Shown here piece by piece: positions 2,913-48,129 of a stretch of DNA of 64,000 nt (position 1 is its first letter; every line of letters starts with the position of its first letter). The stretch spans positions 705 through 64,704 of the forward strand of contig JAXDHQ010000015.1 of the NCBI GenBank assembly GCA_034664395.1, written 5' to 3'. Under the pieces are notes generated by a model. That model did no database searches. It saw only the letters and a program-made list of their open reading frames with translations, and was not told where the DNA came from. The DNA is from Solirubrobacteraceae bacterium (GTDB lineage: Bacteria; Actinomycetota; Thermoleophilia; Solirubrobacterales; Solirubrobacteraceae). The position numbers and the translations under genes are program-made.

Positions 2913-5900
2913 CCCGCCAGCGTCCGGAGCTGGCGGACCATCAGGGTCAGCCCGGCCAGGTCGGCGCCGCCCTCCACCGCCAGCGTCCGCGCCAAACTCT
3001 CCAGCCGCCGGATCGCCTCGCCGTGCGCCTCGACGAACCGGTCAACGGCCTCCTCCACGGGCACGTCCGGCGCGTCCTGGAGCGCGCGCTGGGCCAGGTC
3101 GCGGCGCGCGCGCCACAGGTCGTCGCGCAGCGCCTGCAGCGCCCACCGCTGGGTGCGCGTGCTCACCGGCAGCTCGCTGAGGTGCTGCTCGACCCAGGCG
3201 AGCGCGACGCGCTCCTCCAGCAGCGAGAAGGCGCGGCCGACGTCCTCGACCGAGCGCCCGACCGCCTGGGCGGCGGCGATGACGTCGGGCGCGTGGGCGA
3301 GCGCCGCCAGGTAGGCGTGCGATCGCGCGATCGCCTCGGGCACGCCGCGCTCGACCAGCGCCGCCGCGTCGCGCTCGCGCCGCTCGCGCGCCGCGTCGGT
3401 GCCGAGCTCGGGCAGGACGGTGGCCAGCCGCCCGGCGCCCTCGCGCGCGGTCGCGATCGCGGTGCCGAGGTCGGCGCCGGGCGCGTTGGCCAGGTACCAG
3501 CGCGCGGTCGCCTCGACGAGGTCGTCGACGCCGGCCATGAGCGTCCACTGCGCCTCGCGGTCGACGCGGCCCTGCAGCCCCTCGATCGCCGCCCAGCGCT
3601 CGTGCGCGCCGATGGCGTCGCGGGCCACGCGGTACGCGCGCACCACGTCGGCCGGCTCGACGCCGTGCTCGGCCACCAGCCGCGACACGAACGTCGGGCC
3701 CAGCGCGTCGACGACGTGGTTGGCCACGATCGTCGCCACCAGCTCGCGGCGCAGCGGGTGCTCGGCCAGCAGGTCGCCGAAGCGCTCGACCACCGGCGGC
3801 GGGAAGTAGTCGCGCAGGTCGCGGTCGAGGTAGGGGTCGTCGGGCACCGACGATCGCAGCAGCGCGCCGATGAGGCTGCGCTTGGCGTAGGCGAGCAGCA
3901 CGGCCAGCTCCGGACGCTCGAGCCCGCGCCCGGCGCGCCGGCGCTCGGCCATCTCCTCGGTCGAGGGCAGGAACTCGTTCTCGCGCCGCAGCAGCCCCTC
4001 GGCCTCGAGCGCGCTCATGAGGTCCTCGTAGGCGAACATGCGCGCGGCCGACCCCGGCACCTCCTGGGCGAGGATCTGGGCCTGCAGGAACGAGTCGTAG
4101 AGCACGTGCGCGGCGACGTCGTCGGTCACGTCGGCCAGCAGCGTGTCGCGCTCGTCGCCGGTGAGCTCGCCGCGGCGCACCGCGAGGTCGAGCAGGACCT
4201 TGAGGTTCACCTCGTGGTCGGAGCAGTCGACGCCGGCCGAGTTGTCGATGAAGTCGGCGTTGATCAGGCCGCCTTCGCGGGCGAGCTCGATCCGCGCGCG
4301 CTGGGTGAAGCCGAGGTTGCCGCCCTCGGCGACCACGCGGCAATGAAGGTCGGACGCGTCGACGCGGATGGCGTCGCTCGAGCGGTCCAGCGCGTCGGCG
4401 TCGGTCTCGGTCGACGCCTTGACGACGGTGCCGATGCCGCCGTTCCAGAGCACGTCGACCGGCGCGCGCAGGATCGCGCGGATGACGTCGGTCGGCGCCA
4501 GGACCTCGTCCTCGATCCCCAGCGCCGCGCGCGCCTGCTCGGAGAGCTCGATGCGCTTGGCGCTGCGCGGCCAGACGCCGCCGCCGGCCGAGATCGCGTC
4601 GCGGTCGTAGTCGTCCCACGACGAGGCGGGGAGCTCGAACAGCCGCCGGCGCTCGGCGAAGCTCCGCGCCGCGTCGGGATCGGGGTCGATGAAGATGTGG
4701 CGGTGGTCGTAGGCGGCGACCAGGCGGATGCGGTCGCTGAGCAGCATCCCGTTGCCGAACACGTCGCCGGACATGTCGCCGATGCCCACCGCGGTGAACT
4801 CGTCCACGGCCGGGTCGAGGTCGAGCTCGCGGAAGTGGCGCTTGAGCGACTCCCACGCGCCGCGCGCGGTGATGCCCAGCGCCTTGTGGTCGTAGCCCTT
4901 CGAGCCGCCCGAGGCGAACGCGTCGCCGAGCCAGAAGCCGTACCGCGCGGCGATCCGGTTGGCGGCGTCGGAGAACGTTGCCGTCCCCTTGTCGGCCGCG
5001 ACGACGAGGTAGGTGTCGTCGTCGTCGAGCACGCGCACGCCCTCGGGGTGGACGACCTCGCCGTCGACGAGGTTGTCGGTGACGTCGAGCAGCCCGCTGA
5101 TGTAGGTGACGTACCCGCGCTCGACCTCGGCCTTCAGCCTCGCCGGGTCCTCGGGCCGGCGGCGCAGGTAGAAGCCGCCCTTGGCGCCCTCGGGGACGAT
5201 GACCGCGTTCTTCGTCATCTGCGCGCGCATGAGGCCGAAGACCTCGGTGCGGTAGTCCATGCGATCCGACCAGCGGATGCCGCCGCGCGCGATCCGCCCG
5301 CCGCGCAGGTGGATCCCCTCGACCTCGGGCGCGTAGACGTAGATCTCGAACAGCGGCGGCGGCTGCGGGATCGCCGGTACCTCGGCCGAGCGCAGCTTGA
5401 AGGCGATCGAGCGGCGGCCGCGGCGGTAGAGGTTCGTGCGGACGGTCGCGTCGATCATCCCGAGCTGGTTGCGCAGGATGCGGTCGTGGTCGAGCGACGG
5501 CACGGCCTCGAGGTCGACGAGGATGTCCTCGCGCAGCGCCGCCTCGGCCTCCTCGTCGTGCGCCACCGACGGGTCGAAGCGCAGCTCGAACAGCCGGATG
5601 AGCTTGGCCGTGATGTGCGGGTTGGCCGCGATTACGTCGTTCTGGTAGCCCTCGGTGAAGCGCGAGCCGATGCGCTGACGGTAGGAGCGGTAGGCGCGCA
5701 GGATCGCCACGCGCCGCCAGTCCAGGCCGCCGCTGACGACCAGGCGGTTCAGCGAGTCCGACTCGGCCTCGCCGCGCCAGACGGCGGCGATGCACTCCGC
5801 CACGCGCTCGCCGCACTCGTCGAGGTCGAGCGGCAGGTCGGTCGGCCCCAGCACGCCGAAGTCCTGCAGCCACGTCTCGCCGTCGCCGCCGAGCAGGCGC

Positions 5901-7690
5901 GTCGGGCGCTCCTCGACCACCCGCAGCCCCAGGTGCTCGAGCAGCGGCATCGCCTGCGACAGCTCGACCTTGCCGCCGATCCGGTAGAGCCCGATGCGCG
6001 TCAGCCCGCCGGGCTCGTTGCGCAGGCCGACGCGGAACGGCTCGCCCGAGGTGAACAGCCGCTCGAAGCACTCGACGTCGGCCGCGGCCGCCGCCGGCTC
6101 GACCGCCGCCTTGTAGGACTCGGGCAGTCGCCGGCACCAGCGCTTGGCCAGGACCCGGCCGCGCTCCTCCCCGTGCCGCGCGACGAGCGCCTCGCGGGCC
6201 CGGTCGTCCCAGGTTCGGGCCAGGTCGAGGACCTCGGCCTCCAGGGCGCGGAAGGCGACGTCGGGCAGGCCCCCCTCGGGCCGGTGCACGGTGAAGTGCA
6301 CGCGGACGTGGTCCTCCTCCCCCAGCACCTCGTGGGCCGCGACCGAGCGCGCGTCGAAGCGGGCGGCCAGCAGTGCGCGCAGGCGCTCGAGCAGCGCGGC
6401 GTCGTAGCGCGCCTTGGGCAGGGCGAGGATGATCGACGCCGAGCGCCCGTCGGCGTCGCGGCGGCCCAGCAGCCGGCCCTGCTCGGCCGGCAGCCCCAGC
6501 AGCGCCACGACCGCGCGGCGCAGGTCCTCGACCGGCGCCACGAACAGCTCGTCCTTGGGGAACGAGTCGAAGAGCGAGACCGCCGCCTTGTAGTCGTGCG
6601 AGCCCTCGATCAGGTCCTCCGCCGCCACGATCTGCCGCAGCTTGCGATGCAGGACCGGCGTCGCCGACGCCGGCTCGGCGTAGGCCTTGGTCGTGAACAG
6701 GCCGATCATCCGCGACTCGCCGACGACGCGGCCGTCCGCGTCCACGCGGCGGATGCCGACGTAGTCCATCCGCGCGCGACGGTGCACGGGCGACAGGCGG
6801 TTCGTCCGCGAGATCAGCAGCAGGTCGCCGACCTGCACGCGCTTGCGCAGTCCGGCCTCGAGCTCGGCCAGCGCGACCGGCTTGGCGTAGGCCGAGCGGC
6901 CCTCCTCCGAGAGCAGCCCCAGCCCCGAGCCCGCCACGACCCCCAGCGCGTCGTCGCGCAGGTCGTACTGGCGGGCGCCGAGGAGGATGAAGTTGTCGGC
7001 GCGCAGCCAGTCCAGGAAGGCGACGACCTCCTCGATCTCGTCCTCGTCGTAGCGCTCGGCCGCGGCGCGGGCGACGTCGGCCATGGCGTCGATGCGCGCG
7101 CGCATGGCGTCGAAGTCGCGCACGACGCGGCGCACGTCGGCGAGCACCGCGCGCACCGCGTCCTCGAGGTCGGCGAGCTCCTCGGGCGACAGCCTCCGGT
7201 CGAGCTCGAAGTGCATGACCGACTCGGTCGCGGTCGCGCCGCCGGGGTGCAGCACCCGGGCGATGCCGCCGTCGGGGCCGCGCTCGGTGCCGACGATCGG
7301 GTGCAGCACGCGGACGATGCCCAGGCCGCGGGCCTGCAGCTCGGCGGTGACGGAGTCGACGAGGAACGGCAGGTCCGCGGTGTTGGTCTCCAGCACCGAG
7401 CCGGCGGTGCGATAGCCGTGCTCGGCCGCGGTCGGGTTGATCGCCCGCACCGCCATCGGCGCCCCGTCGCGCGACGCGGCGAGCTCGAAGGCGCCCAGCA
7501 GCTCGTGGAAGAGCGCCTCGGCGTCGGGCGCGGCGTCGCCGTCGTCGGCGGTCCCGGCTGAGCGCCGGCGCAGGTAGGCGCGGGCAAACTCCAGCACGGC
7601 CTCGGCCCGCTCCGGCGGCAGCCGCTCTGAGACGAGCTGCTCGACGTCCGTCACGCAGCCATCATGGCGCTCCCGGGGGGCGGTTGTCAT
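2909..7690 (-). CDS. gdh: NAD-specific glutamate dehydrogenase, large (~180 kDa, Bac_GDH) class
   Basis: ORF 2909..7990. ATG 7690 gives 1593 aa (alternative GTG 36 nt downstream). Catalytic-core motifs ..RGGIRWSDR.., ..PEGAKGGFY.., ..GIGDMSGDVFGNGML.. are embedded in long N- and C-terminal extensions, as in the large bacterial NAD-GDH family. Confidence 0.92.
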   Translation of the reverse strand: MTTAPRERHDGCVTDVEQLVSERLPPERAEAVLEFARAYLRRRSAGTADDGDAAPDAEALFHELLGAFELAASRDGAPMAVRAINPTAAEHGYRTAGSVLETNTADLPFLVDSVTAELQARGLGIVRVLHPIVGTERGPDGGIARVLHPGGATATESVMHFELDRRLSPEELADLEDAVRAVLADVRRVVRDFDAMRARIDAMADVARAAAERYDEDEIEEVVAFLDWLRADNFILLGARQYDLRDDALGVVAGSGLGLLSEEGRSAYAKPVALAELEAGLRKRVQVGDLLLISRTNRLSPVHRRARMDYVGIRRVDADGRVVGESRMIGLFTTKAYAEPASATPVLHRKLRQIVAAEDLIEGSHDYKAAVSLFDSFPKDELFVAPVEDLRRAVVALLGLPAEQGRLLGRRDADGRSASIILALPKARYDAALLERLRALLAARFDARSVAAHEVLGEEDHVRVHFTVHRPEGGLPDVAFRALEAEVLDLARTWDDRAREALVARHGEERGRVLAKRWCRRLPESYKAAVEPAAAAADVECFERLFTSGEPFRVGLRNEPGGLTRIGLYRIGGKVELSQAMPLLEHLGLRVVEERPTRLLGGDGETWLQDFGVLGPTDLPLDLDECGERVAECIAAVWRGEAESDSLNRLVVSGGLDWRRVAILRAYRSYRQRIGSRFTEGYQNDVIAANPHITAKLIRLFELRFDPSVAHDEEAEAALREDILVDLEAVPSLDHDRILRNQLGMIDATVRTNLYRRGRRSIAFKLRSAEVPAIPQPPPLFEIYVYAPEVEGIHLRGGRIARGGIRWSDRMDYRTEVFGLMRAQMTKNAVIVPEGAKGGFYLRRRPEDPARLKAEVERGYVTYISGLLDVTDNLVDGEVVHPEGVRVLDDDDTYLVVAADKGTATFSDAANRIAARYGFWLGDAFASGGSKGYDHKALGITARGAWESLKRHFRELDLDPAVDEFTAVGIGDMSGDVFGNGMLLSDRIRLVAAYDHRHIFIDPDPDAARSFAERRRLFELPASSWDDYDRDAISAGGGVWPRSAKRIELSEQARAALGIEDEVLAPTDVIRAILRAPVDVLWNGGIGTVVKASTETDADALDRSSDAIRVDASDLHCRVVAEGGNLGFTQRARIELAREGGLINADFIDNSAGVDCSDHEVNLKVLLDLAVRRGELTGDERDTLLADVTDDVAAHVLYDSFLQAQILAQEVPGSAARMFAYEDLMSALEAEGLLRRENEFLPSTEEMAERRRAGRGLERPELAVLLAYAKRSLIGALLRSSVPDDPYLDRDLRDYFPPPVVERFGDLLAEHPLRRELVATIVANHVVDALGPTFVSRLVAEHGVEPADVVRAYRVARDAIGAHERWAAIEGLQGRVDREAQWTLMAGVDDLVEATARWYLANAPGADLGTAIATAREGAGRLATVLPELGTDAARERRERDAAALVERGVPEAIARSHAYLAALAHAPDVIAAAQAVGRSVEDVGRAFSLLEERVALAWVEQHLSELPVSTRTQRWALQALRDDLWRARRDLAQRALQDAPDVPVEEAVDRFVEAHGEAIRRLESLARTLAVEGGADLAGLTLMVRQLRTLAG

Positions 7691-7691
7691 C

Positions 7692-8212
7692 CGAGTTGGG
7701 GTTTGTCGGGCCGTCTGCAACGTGGCGTGCCGGCGGCGGGCGTGGCGGCGCCGTGCGCGGGCGGCCCCGGGGCGGCCTGCCGCGAGCGCTCGGCGGAACC
7801 GCGCGGCCAGGGCAATGAGGGGTGAGCGCCTGCGCACTCTCCCGACGTTCGTGGCGTGCGCCTTCGCGGGTGGCGCCCGCGTCGCGGTGATGGGTCGAGA
7901 AAGCGACGGAGGATGTCGCAAGATCTCCCCAGCGGCCCGGGACCGCCCGCATCGGGCGTCACGCGTCGCAGTCCTGCCGCGATGTCGCAACAGACCGCGC
8001 GAGCGCCGATGCAGTTCCAGGCACCCCGTGGGGGGTGTGCGCTCTTTTGCCCCCTAGAACGAGGGTTAGAGCGCACACCCCCCACCCCCAGGCGCCAAGA
8101 GCGACGGCGGAGCCGCGAAACGTCACGAAACGCCGCGAGATCGCTTCCCCTCGGTGCCCTGTCCGCCACGAACGCGCGCGGCGAGAGCGCCCACGGTGCG
8201 AGTTGGAGGACG
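7692..8212 (+). repeat. Dispersed intergenic multi-block repeat, copy A (boundaries approximate)
   Basis: Colinear sequence blocks are shared with 40960-41370 and 47751-48122. The 62-nt core 8121-8182 differs at one position from 47957-48018. No credible ORF. Confidence 0.8.
8030..8083. repeat. 16-bp perfect inverted repeat (hairpin) inside repeat copy A
   Basis: GGGGGGTGTGCGCTCT (8030-8045) pairs with AGAGCGCACACCCCCC (8068-8083) around a 22-nt loop. The loop contains a small CCCT/AGGG stem. The T-run CTCTTTTG directly follows the 5' arm. Confidence 0.85.
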
Positions 8213-8232
8213 GCGACGTATCATGCAACCCC

Positions 8233-8499
8233 ATGGTTGCGCGTGACATCGTCCTCCCGGTCGACCCCGAGGAGGCCTGGGAGGCGCTGACCGACCCCGA
8301 GCTGCTCGAGCAGTGGCTCGGCGGCGAGCGCGAGGCGGTCCTCGAGGAGGCCGAGCCGGGCGAGCGCCTCGTGTTCTGGTGGTGGGAGGAGGGCGAGCCC
8401 GGGTCGCGCGTCGAGCTGCGACTCGTCCCGGTGGACGGCGGCACCCGGGTCTCGGTCACCGAGGCGCCGGTCGGGCCGTTCGCGCTCGCGACGGCATGA
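8233..8499 (+). CDS. Small SRPBCC/AHSA1-like domain protein
   Basis: ATG 8233 within ORF 8035..8499 (88 aa): MVARDIVLPVDPEEAWEALTDPELLEQWLG... ATGA overlap with the downstream ArsR gene, a common gene pairing. Confidence 0.7.
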   Translation: MVARDIVLPVDPEEAWEALTDPELLEQWLGGEREAVLEEAEPGERLVFWWWEEGEPGSRVELRLVPVDGGTRVSVTEAPVGPFALATA

Positions 8500-40941: not shown

Positions 40942-40959
40942 CGCCGCCTAGTGTGACTG

Positions 40960-41370
40960 ATCGGCGCGGGCCCGACGCGGCGCGCAACGCGGCGCCCGAT
41001 CGCGCACGTCGGCGGCCCTGCGCGGCGAGGGCATCGAGGGGAAGCGGAGTCTGTGGCGCTGCGGGGCGCGGGCGGTCGTCCTCCGGGGGCGCGGGGGGTG
41101 TGGTCTGCAACGGCGAGCACCATGACCGTCACGACTCCGCGCAGGCTCTGCGTGCCCTTCGCGCCGTGGGCACGCGGCGGGCGCGGGCGCTGGAGGGGTG
41201 GGCTCTTTTTCTTTCGCTATGCGAAACAAGGAGAGCCCACCCCCCGGCGAGCCCGGCCATTCGCGACGGAAGACGCCCAGAGCGTCACGACACTCCGCGA
41301 CTCTGCTTCCCCTCGGTGCCCTGCGCCACGAAGACGAACACTGGGGCGAAGCCGTGAGGCGGATCGGGTG
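40960..41370 (+). repeat. Dispersed intergenic multi-block repeat, copy B (boundaries approximate)
   Basis: It fills the 464-bp deoC/acyl-CoA dehydrogenase gap. It shares GCGCGGCGAGG(G)CA(T/C)CGAGGG(G)AAGCG, the CGTCACGACTC.GCGCAG.CTCTGC box, a hairpin, GCGACGGAAGAC and a diverged core (41283-41335) with copies A and C. Confidence 0.75.
41195..41243. repeat. 12-bp perfect inverted repeat with nested inner stem (hairpin) inside repeat copy B
   Basis: GGGGTGGGCTCT (41195-41206) pairs with AGAGCCCACCCC (41232-41243). Inner stem TTTCGC-tat-GCGAAA (41212-41226). The T-run CTCTTTTTCTTTC follows the 5' arm. Confidence 0.85.
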
Positions 41371-41405
41371 ACCCGGCCCCACCCGACCACCGACGCATCG
41401 CCGAG

Positions 41406-47026: not shown

Positions 47027-47752
47027 ATGGCGCACGACGCGGCCGTGGCCGCCGTCTTCGAGCCTGTGGCGCCCCCGACGACCTTCGAGGAGACCGTCGA
47101 GCGCCTCGGGAGCGCGATCCGGCTGGGGATCCTCGGGCCCGGGACGCGGCTGCCGTCCGAGCGCGAGCTCGCCGACCAGCTCGGTATCTCGCGCTCGACG
47201 CTGCGCCAGGCGATCACCACGCTCGTGCAGTCCGGCCACATCACGTCGGTGCGGGGACGCGGCGGCGGCACCTTCGTCGTCCAGGAGCCGCCGCTGGCCG
47301 AGGGCAGCCCCGCCGGCGCGGTCCGCCCGGACTGGCGCCTGGTGCTGGACCTGCGCGTGGCCATCGAGATCGGCGCCGCCACGCTCGCCGCCGAACGCGC
47401 CGGCGACGACGACCTCGCGCTCATGCGCGGGTGCGTGGAGCGGATGAACGCGGCCACCGAGTTCGACGACTACCGGCGCGCCGACGTGGGCTTCCACATG
47501 GCCATCGCCCAGGCCAGCGGCGTGCCGCGCCTGGTCGCGCTCATGACCGAGGTGCATTCCGACGTGGCGGAGCTCATCGCCCACATCGCCCACCCGCCCG
47601 AGGTCCTCGCCCACTCCAACCTCGAGCACGCCAAGATCGTCGACGCGTGGGCCCGCGGCGAGGGCGCCCGCGGCATCACGCTCCTGCGCCGCCACCTCGA
47701 GGGCACCGAGCACATCCTCGGCGGCCTGTTCCCGGCGGGGGCGCCGGCCTGA
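47027..47752 (+). CDS. GntR-family (FadR/FCD subfamily) transcriptional regulator
   Basis: ATG 47027 within ORF 46751..47752, 241 aa: ..LPSERELADQLGISRSTLRQAITTLVQSGHITSVRGRGGGTFV.. plus a helical FCD-like C-terminal domain. Confidence 0.88.
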   Translation: MAHDAAVAAVFEPVAPPTTFEETVERLGSAIRLGILGPGTRLPSERELADQLGISRSTLRQAITTLVQSGHITSVRGRGGGTFVVQEPPLAEGSPAGAVRPDWRLVLDLRVAIEIGAATLAAERAGDDDLALMRGCVERMNAATEFDDYRRADVGFHMAIAQASGVPRLVALMTEVHSDVAELIAHIAHPPEVLAHSNLEHAKIVDAWARGEGARGITLLRRHLEGTEHILGGLFPAGAPA

Positions 47753-48122
47753 GGTTGGTGGTGGCGCGGGCGGTGGCGGCGCCGCGCGCGCTCCGCGTCG
47801 CGTGGGCGGCGCCGCGCGGCGAGGCACCGAGGGAAAGCGACGCGATCCCCGCATCCGTCACGACTCTGCGCAGCCTCTGCCTTCCCTTCGCGCCCCGGGC
47901 GGGCGGCGTCGCCCGCGCGGCCCCGGGGCGCCACCTGCGACGGCGGAGGCCCGAAGCGTCACGAAACGCCGCGAGATCGCTTCCCCTCGGTGCCCTGTCG
48001 GCCACGAACGCGCGCGGCAGACGAACGGCGCCGCGACCTGGAGGGCGGCGGCCTGGGCGAGAACTGCGAAAGCGGGCCTGGGCGAGAGCCGCGAGGCGGC
48101 GCTGCGCGGTGAGCGACGAAGG
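47751..48122 (+). repeat. Dispersed intergenic multi-block repeat, copy C (boundaries approximate)
   Basis: It fills the 377-bp gap between two convergent GntR genes. It lacks the hairpin block. It contains both CGTCACGA boxes (47856-47900 and 47957-48000) and the 62-nt core 47957-48018. Confidence 0.8.
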
Positions 48123-48129
48123 ACGTCCG

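Follow-up and report, generated by a model that had tools for sequence, protein, structure and literature searches.

Two-box terminal arms define a family of mosaic intergenic repeats in a Solirubrobacterales genome

Three repeat elements in the window

The DNA analysed here (the window) is a stretch of 64,000 nucleotides, corresponding to C15:705-64704 of the assembly of an uncultured soil actinobacterium of the order Solirubrobacterales (a MAG of 3.99 Mb in 325 contigs with 73.6% GC, referred to below as the host). Three of its intergenic regions were found to be filled by repeat elements, designated A, B and C (Table 1). Element A fills the divergent gap between a large glutamate dehydrogenase gene (gdh) and an SRPBCC-family gene, while the genes that border the other two elements are given in the table. 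All three elements consist of an outward-facing inverted pair of arms, of which the right arm corresponds to a 62-nt sequence (the core) that had drawn attention in the first-pass annotation, and the left arm is degenerate.

Table 1. Positions of elements A, B and C and their component parts, in window coordinates
Feature	Position	Strand	Remarks
Core A, right terminal arm of element A	8121..8182	+	Box 1, spacer, box 2 and outer tail
Core A, box 1 CGTCACGA	8121-8128	+	
Core A, spacer	8129-8146	+	18 nt, up to the 15-nt box
Core A, box 2 CCCCTCGGTGCCCTG	8147-8161	+	
Core A, outer tail	8162-8182	+	
Element A, left arm	7800..7847	-	Degenerate inverted copy of the core; pairs with the core in the predicted fold
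Element A, left-arm box 2 CAGGGCAATGAGGGG	7808-7822		
Element A, left-arm box-1 remnant TCCCGACG	7840-7847		
Copy A, entire repeat-filled stretch	7715..8218	.	From the repeat depth profile and synteny with five relatives
Element A, interior hairpin module GGGGGGTG...CACCCCCC	8030..8083	.	Outer stem of 16 bp, inner part copy-variable
Core C, right terminal arm of element C	47957..48018	+	Box 2 at 47983-47997
Element C, left arm	47806..47840	-	Degenerate box 2 CGAGGCACCGAGGGAAAG at 47820-47837
Element C, internal degenerate direct copy of the unit	47856..47894	+	CGTCACGA followed by CTCTGCGCAGCCTCTGCCTTCCCTTCGCGCC; internal unit also present in the type-3 subfamily
Element C, gap	47753..48129	.	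377 nt between two convergent genes
Element B, right arm	41283..41335	+	Type-3 subfamily; box 1 at 41283-41290, box 2 at 41309-41323
Element B, left-arm box 2	41027..41044	-	Reads GAGGGCATCGAGGGGAAG on the + strand
Element B, gap	40942..41405	.	464 nt between the deoC and acyl-CoA dehydrogenase genes

The 62-mer, with S at its variable position, was shown to match the window exactly twice, at the cores of elements A and C, and none of 100 shuffled controls produced a match. The two cores are equal at 61 of 62 bases, the sole difference being at the C/G position. When both intergenic regions were aligned globally, identity dropped to 75% (24/32) in the 32 nt upstream of the core and to 61% (25/41) in the 41 nt downstream, and did not exceed 54% beyond these flanks, in agreement with the previously reported near-identity of 62 nt amid diverged surroundings. 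The remainder of the two elements is made from different modules, and identity falls abruptly at the edges of the core; a similarly abrupt change was observed at the arm edges of several other pairs. The arms of A and C are each other's nearest relatives (98%), the next nearest arms being 89-90% identical. This pair is not unique: an identity of 61/62 is reached by five of 3916 arm pairs genome-wide, A-C included, against a median arm identity of 74%, and the ties include the pair on contigs C173 and C175, whose full elements are ~92% identical. The copy in element B was confirmed as a related arm that belongs to another subfamily and carries the 2-nt gap after CCCTG described earlier.

The identity of the A and C cores is explained in part by family-wide constraint on two invariant boxes (see below). 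At the core positions that vary within the family (15 spacer and 21 outer nucleotides), A and C differ at one of 36 positions, compared with 24 of 73 in the flanks (Fisher p = 2e-4). Recent gene conversion, as proposed in the first-pass annotation, or recent copying is still needed to account for the agreement at 35 of these 36 unconstrained positions. Since the identity covers family-variable positions while the flanks differ, we infer from the alignments that the arm was copied recently between both loci, or that both loci drew it from one source arm. Likely routes would be gene conversion or ectopic recombination between the two elements, which lie 40 kb apart, or the assembly of chimeric elements from a single source arm.

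Arm anatomy, element architecture and genomic distribution

The conservation profile of the arm across its genome-wide copies was strongly uneven, with no sign of uniform decay. Two boxes, CGTCACGA (8 nt) and TTCCCCTCGGTGCCCTG (15-17 nt), are near-invariant and have their centres ~30 nt apart, separated by a spacer that is variable in sequence and 17-20 nt in length (18-20 nt in 59 of 60 cases). Moderate conservation extends for ~30 nt inward of the boxes (GCGCCAC.TGCGACGGCGGAC), and outward of them conservation reaches background by about +25 nt. A terminal motif, GGACGAS and its variants, peaks 10-29 nt beyond box 2 (39 occurrences, compared with two in the inward control), which places the end of the arm close to the end of the 62-mer, i.e. 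~20-35 nt beyond box 2. Three arm subtypes, assigned by simple patterns, differ chiefly in the spacer. The family is defined by the CGTCACGA/CCCCTCGGTGCCCTG arm and has the signature CGTCACGA-N18-20-CCCTCGGTGCC, the latter part being box 2 minus its first C. The exact two-box pattern has 51 matches in the host genome, and the signature is usable for masking or annotating ~150 sites.

An nhmmer search iterated from the core retrieved 102 copies of a 46-nt unit at 70 loci of the 4 Mb genome, a sequence-only covariance model (R1) identified 129 units, and box 2 was counted 148 times in 86 intergenic regions. No overlap with a predicted gene was seen for any of the 102 units, the gene calls being those of a codon-usage model built for this analysis. 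Furthermore, the 15-nt box CCCCTCGGTGCCCTG with up to two mismatches was found at 131 intergenic and 36 genic positions, where intergenic DNA represents 8% of the genome (p = 1e-108), and with zero or one mismatch at 94 intergenic positions and a single genic one. Box-bearing gaps have a median length of 479 nt, compared with a genome median of 22 nt, and boxes are present in 48 of the 228 gaps of at least 300 nt. Convergent gaps represent 31 of 66 cases, against a background of 14% (3.3-fold enrichment; p = 1.6e-10), and divergent gaps are not depleted of elements; convergent enrichment without divergent depletion is the usual pattern of tolerated insertions.

Many contigs of the assembly (C1, C14, C28, C46, C59, C72, C102, C173, C175, C210, C318 and others) end 50-300 nt from an arm, with the interior of an element running off the contig end. 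The repeats are one of the main reasons for the fragmented state of this MAG, and the family accounts for its unusually long intergenic gaps as well as for much of the broken assembly.

The earlier description of the core as a distinct module was borne out, although it had missed that the core represents one arm of an inverted pair, within a family of ~150 arms. The outward-facing inverted pair is the dominant arrangement among the 86 boxed regions: 37 of them contain outward-facing inverted box pairs, and no region has the opposite arrangement alone (sign test p = 1.5e-11). Paired boxes lie 60-430 bp apart and enclose hairpins, and the two arms can be aligned over ~60-100 nt. The resulting elements of ~150-500 bp are composed of two outward arms around optional hairpin modules. 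Many of them combine one type 1 arm with one type 2 arm, their interior modules being arranged in a fixed order relative to the arms, and shorter type 1/type 2 elements lack one or both hairpin modules, giving a size range of 155-421 bp. A third subfamily (type-3), to which copy B belongs, contains an extra internal degenerate unit. Overall, arms of three subtypes are combined in various ways with hairpin modules of at least three kinds, and the elements are mosaics of a few modules and not uniform deletion derivatives. The best full-length element pairs are ~92% identical, and no pair reaches 95% beyond 133 bp, so that there is no sign of a very recent burst.

The interior hairpins (e.g. at 8030-8083 and 41195-41243 of the window, and at many other host loci) have long stems that differ between copies while pairing is kept, often with T-rich and A-rich shoulders and with small loops such as TATG, ATAG or CATAG.

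Coding potential and RNA folding of the core

Two GTG-started open reading frames on the minus strand, at 7687-8169 and 47676-48005, both begin with MADRAPRGSDLAAFRD and diverge right after the shared arm. These 16 common residues, together with the fact that the single difference between copies A and C is synonymous in that frame, could be taken to mean that small proteins encoded on the minus strand have their N-terminus, MADRAPRGSDLAAFRD, in the core. However, the two frames diverge completely past the arm, neither was called by the codon-usage gene model, neither has a match in Pfam, members of the family differ from each other by indels of 1-3 nt, and ~150 copies lie in intergenic DNA in either orientation, by which the N-terminal coding reading is effectively refuted. 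The core is non-coding: it lies outside genes, its copies differ by indels whose lengths are not divisible by three, it shows no codon usage typical of coding DNA, and its frame has no match in Pfam. With no unit inside a gene and a box spacing of 17-20 nt that does not keep to multiples of three, the minus-strand frames are shadows, as had been proposed from the window alone, and searches of Rfam and Pfam assigned the core to no known RNA or protein family.

At the Rfam gathering level no match was obtained anywhere in the window, and at E values of up to 5 copies A and B returned only microRNA-like or generic hairpin noise. RNAalifold detected zero consensus pairs in an arm alignment of 57 units, and the 62-mer folded no better than its shuffles on either strand (z = +0.6 and +1.2). 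A self-contained RNA motif was rejected on these grounds. Among differences between the two arms around box 2 (22 polarity-assigned of 46 pairs), transversions (34) were as frequent as transitions, and transitions that would give G-U pairs showed no strand bias (16 versus 19), indicating that pairing between arms does not appear to be under selection. An RNA stem kept by compensation between arms was therefore discarded as well, as was membership in a structured non-coding RNA family, given the lack of a gathering-level Rfam match, of an arm consensus structure and of inter-arm compensation.

The folding of complete elements bears on a further possibility, namely that the repeats act at the RNA level as 3' untranslated regions, in which a stem formed by the two arms around the hairpins would terminate transcription or block 3' exonucleases, and the core would be conserved as one strand of a long closing stem. 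The predicted single-strand fold of the whole element A, in which the core is paired to the left arm, is considerably more stable than that of its shuffles (z = -5.9), the stems of the interior hairpins are long and copy-variable yet still paired, and the 3.3-fold enrichment in convergent gaps would fit such a role. Conversely, the predicted fold of element C exceeds that of its shuffles in stability by a small margin only (z = -1.6), the core alone adopts no fold, the arm-arm substitutions argue that pairing is not maintained, copy A is located between divergent gene starts, the boxes are kept as sequence across species, and no Rfam family is matched. We regard an RNA-level function as unlikely.

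No sigma-70 promoter or intrinsic terminator was found in the core. Its reverse strand contains GGAAG-N16-CGTG, which can be read as ECF-sigma-like; this candidate was set aside, as the best-conserved bases lie outside the motif and such a promoter would fire into the element.

The conserved property of the arm is its sequence and spacing, not base-pairing, which points to DNA recognition by a protein. The suggestion that the core is a functional module holds for two of the three forms that had been offered, a transposition end or a protein-binding site, which fit best; the third, an RNA motif, finds neither a conserved fold nor compensation.

Occurrence in relatives, mobility and likeness to known repeats

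Model R1 produced weaker matches in 17 of 25 genomes of the same genus, at roughly 5-25 per genome, and across the genus the copy number ranges from zero to ~150 per genome. The elements of the relatives were shown to consist of outward pairs of ...GCGGCCAGGGCACCGAGGG... placed 100-330 bp apart around a common hairpin, GGGGGTGGGCTC...GAGCCCACCCCC. The exact two-box pattern was not found in any of 40 relatives, and in the JGI metagenomes the full pattern had only two matches, both in coding regions and attributable to chance. The complete two-box arm was seen in the host genome alone, with relatives sharing box 2 and the hairpin module. A 20-nt box pattern gave multiple matches only in related Solirubrobacterales MAGs and single matches in other taxa, which are probably due to chance.

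Insertion polymorphism was observed at orthologous sites, elements A, B and C being absent in relatives. At the copy C locus, relatives G005, G017 and G002 keep the convergent gene pair with gaps of 5, 11 and 12 nt, respectively, compared with 377 nt in the host, and at the copy B locus G022 has a gap of 45 nt where that of the host measures 464 nt. The converse case is represented by G002, in which a 219-bp element is situated between stop codons that are 4 nt apart in the host. Of eight distinct element loci of relatives with flanks conserved in the host, five are empty and three occupied in the host. As several sites without an element in the host are occupied by a related one in relatives, the family is or was mobile. 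No target-site duplication was readable in three comparisons of filled and empty sites, in which the species are too diverged for such a reading (flanks ~80-86% identical) and the termini not sharply defined.

In a further relative (G018, locus L078), the orthologue of the copy C gap contains a stand-alone long hairpin, CGAACGTCC..GGACGTACCAAC-AGG-GTTGGTACGTC..GGACGTTCG, without boxes, and hairpin modules may accordingly move independently of arms.

At the copy A locus, the region from gdh to the SRPBCC/ArsR genes contains clpP and a short gap with an operator in five relatives. In the host the element occupies the clpP space and homology resumes ~5 nt before the SRPBCC start codon. Comparison of window positions 7655-8223 with the corresponding loci (L017 and L019-L022) identified a ClpP-family protease gene in these five same-genus relatives, a paralogue that is absent in the host, which keeps two other clpP paralogues on C322 (70% identity) and C223 (65%). 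A probable ArsR-type operator, the palindrome GCAACC-N4-GGTTGC, overlaps the SRPBCC start codon at window positions 8224-8241 and is kept in relatives. Relatives have a further palindrome upstream, TGCAACCGTTTGGTTGCA, which disappeared from the host when the element replaced the upstream DNA, and owing to this replacement the promoter of the SRPBCC/ArsR operon must lie within or beyond the element. The elements have thus reshaped loci, one of them having replaced a clpP paralogue together with upstream regulatory DNA of an ArsR-type operon.

No gene encoding a mobilising enzyme was identified. Searches for Y1_Tnp (PF01797)/RAYT returned no match in the host or in 25 genomes of the genus, with control genomes being positive. 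Within the host assembly, boxes spaced by 0.7-6 kb were not encountered, nor was any gene with boxes on both sides inside 4 kb; this search covered a 325-contig MAG often broken inside elements, from which an autonomous parent could be absent. The host has one locus each for DDE_Tnp_1 and rve, and neither has arms in its vicinity. An autonomous parent element was likewise not present among the box positions listed for seven contiguous relatives, in which the listed box pairs are 100-330 bp apart.

A box pair 1.7 kb apart in one relative was considered as a candidate parent and rejected, as it represents an element into which an IS1182-like insertion sequence, with ends of its own, has inserted. 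This insertion sequence (L066, positions 3540-5250; MAG MFD04944.bin.2.197) encodes a 444-aa transposase, has its own inverted ends and sits in the loop of the hairpin GTCGACTTTGTC...GACAAAGTCGAC inside the box-bounded element, which suggests that the hairpins are insertion targets.

That no transposase is detectable would be in keeping with binding of the boxes by a protein of the host (e.g. a nucleoid-associated protein or global regulator), the repeat being kept through host use (exaptation) and not through transposition. The fixed distance of ~30 nt between the centres of the two boxes could reflect such binding, as could the conservation of box 2 across a genus in which proteins are only ~75-93% identical. 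The sites are, however, located mostly at gene 3' ends and always as outward pairs 60-430 bp apart with hairpins between them, the copy number varies from zero to ~150 per genome, and elements A, B and C are absent at the orthologous loci of relatives, unlike a conserved regulon. Exaptation of this kind is considered very unlikely.

The failure to find an enzyme, the mosaic module content and the abrupt change in identity at the arm edges of several pairs could also be reconciled with spread and homogenisation solely by homologous recombination, gene conversion or replication slippage, with no dedicated enzyme, in which case the boxes would seem conserved merely through conversion tracts centred on them. 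Yet recombining copies cannot fill a formerly empty gap of 4-12 nt between stop codons, and conversion alone leaves unexplained why box 2 is equal in species whose elements differ in their other parts. This explanation is deemed highly improbable.

The reading that we consider fairly probable, from the sequence comparisons presented here, is that the core is a terminal inverted-repeat arm with a two-part protein recognition site, that the elements are mobilised in trans, and that the arm shared by A and C was recently copied. The two-box arm would be the recognition site of a putative trans-acting DNA enzyme, a transposase or recombinase, by which the elements are, or formerly were, mobilised. 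The modules in the interior would either be carried along as passengers or serve as structures that let a single-stranded form fold. Recognition by such an enzyme would explain why the boxes remain constant while the rest of the element decays or recombines. A more far-reaching proposal, that a putative host-encoded DNA enzyme other than RAYT maintains a vertically inherited population of elements across the whole Solirubrobacterales genus, is distinctly unlikely; if true, it would constitute an actinobacterial counterpart of the REPIN-RAYT partnership with a different enzyme class.

Among known systems, the family resembles MITEs (e.g. Correia of Neisseria and Nezha of cyanobacteria) in being short and non-coding with terminal inverted repeats as its best-conserved part, in its dispersed intergenic positions, often at gene 3' ends, in its long stem-loops and in its presence or absence between related genomes. 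It differs from MITEs in that no parent insertion sequence with the same ends was found in this fragmented MAG, in its unusually long, two-part arms (boxes of 8 nt and 15-17 nt, 18-20 nt apart), and in copies that are mosaics of interchangeable modules; a target-site duplication was not readable at the divergence of the species compared.

With the enterobacterial BIMEs and the BOX elements of Streptococcus pneumoniae, the family shares conserved end modules and interior modules that are variable in number and kind, as well as a strictly extragenic location, the capacity to form hairpins and the absence of a known dedicated transposase inside. There is no sequence relationship to either, the present host is a high-GC actinobacterium, and the end module lacks a palindrome of its own, whereas the REP units in BIMEs are palindromic.

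Similarities to REP/REPIN sequences include inverted doublets of a conserved unit, long persistence within a lineage and very different copy numbers between species. However, none of the 25 genomes of the genus has the defining RAYT gene, the unit does not fold back on itself as a palindrome, and the two members of a doublet are separated by 60-430 bp that contain other modules. A REP/RAYT system was rejected on the basis of the missing Y1 transposase, in the host as well as in the 25 genomes, and of the non-palindromic unit. The family works like MITEs and looks like mosaic BIME/BOX repeats. It falls within an ordinary class of selfish bacterial repeats, of which it is an undescribed member, and does not constitute a novel type of system; no paper on such repeats in the Solirubrobacterales lineage was found.

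Other short repeats accompany the elements. A third hairpin type, CGACGAAAATGTCACCT-CCC-AGGTGACATTTTCGTCG, occurs within or just outside them. Just outside element B (~41335-41396), a 62-nt stretch is 98% identical to a stretch in a gap on contig C75 and represents another short module conserved above its surroundings. Finally, a second non-coding repeat family of ~250-370 bp, which starts with CGGGCACCTGTCGCCGCCCGTGGGCGGCGGCTGGCCCGCAAC and contains no open reading frame, was found in eight copies in the host genome (C46:141, C56:15003, C75:782, C216:109, C252:19035 and on C1, C147 and C229), most of which directly border type-3 elements, or the hairpin module that flanks these, on the outside.
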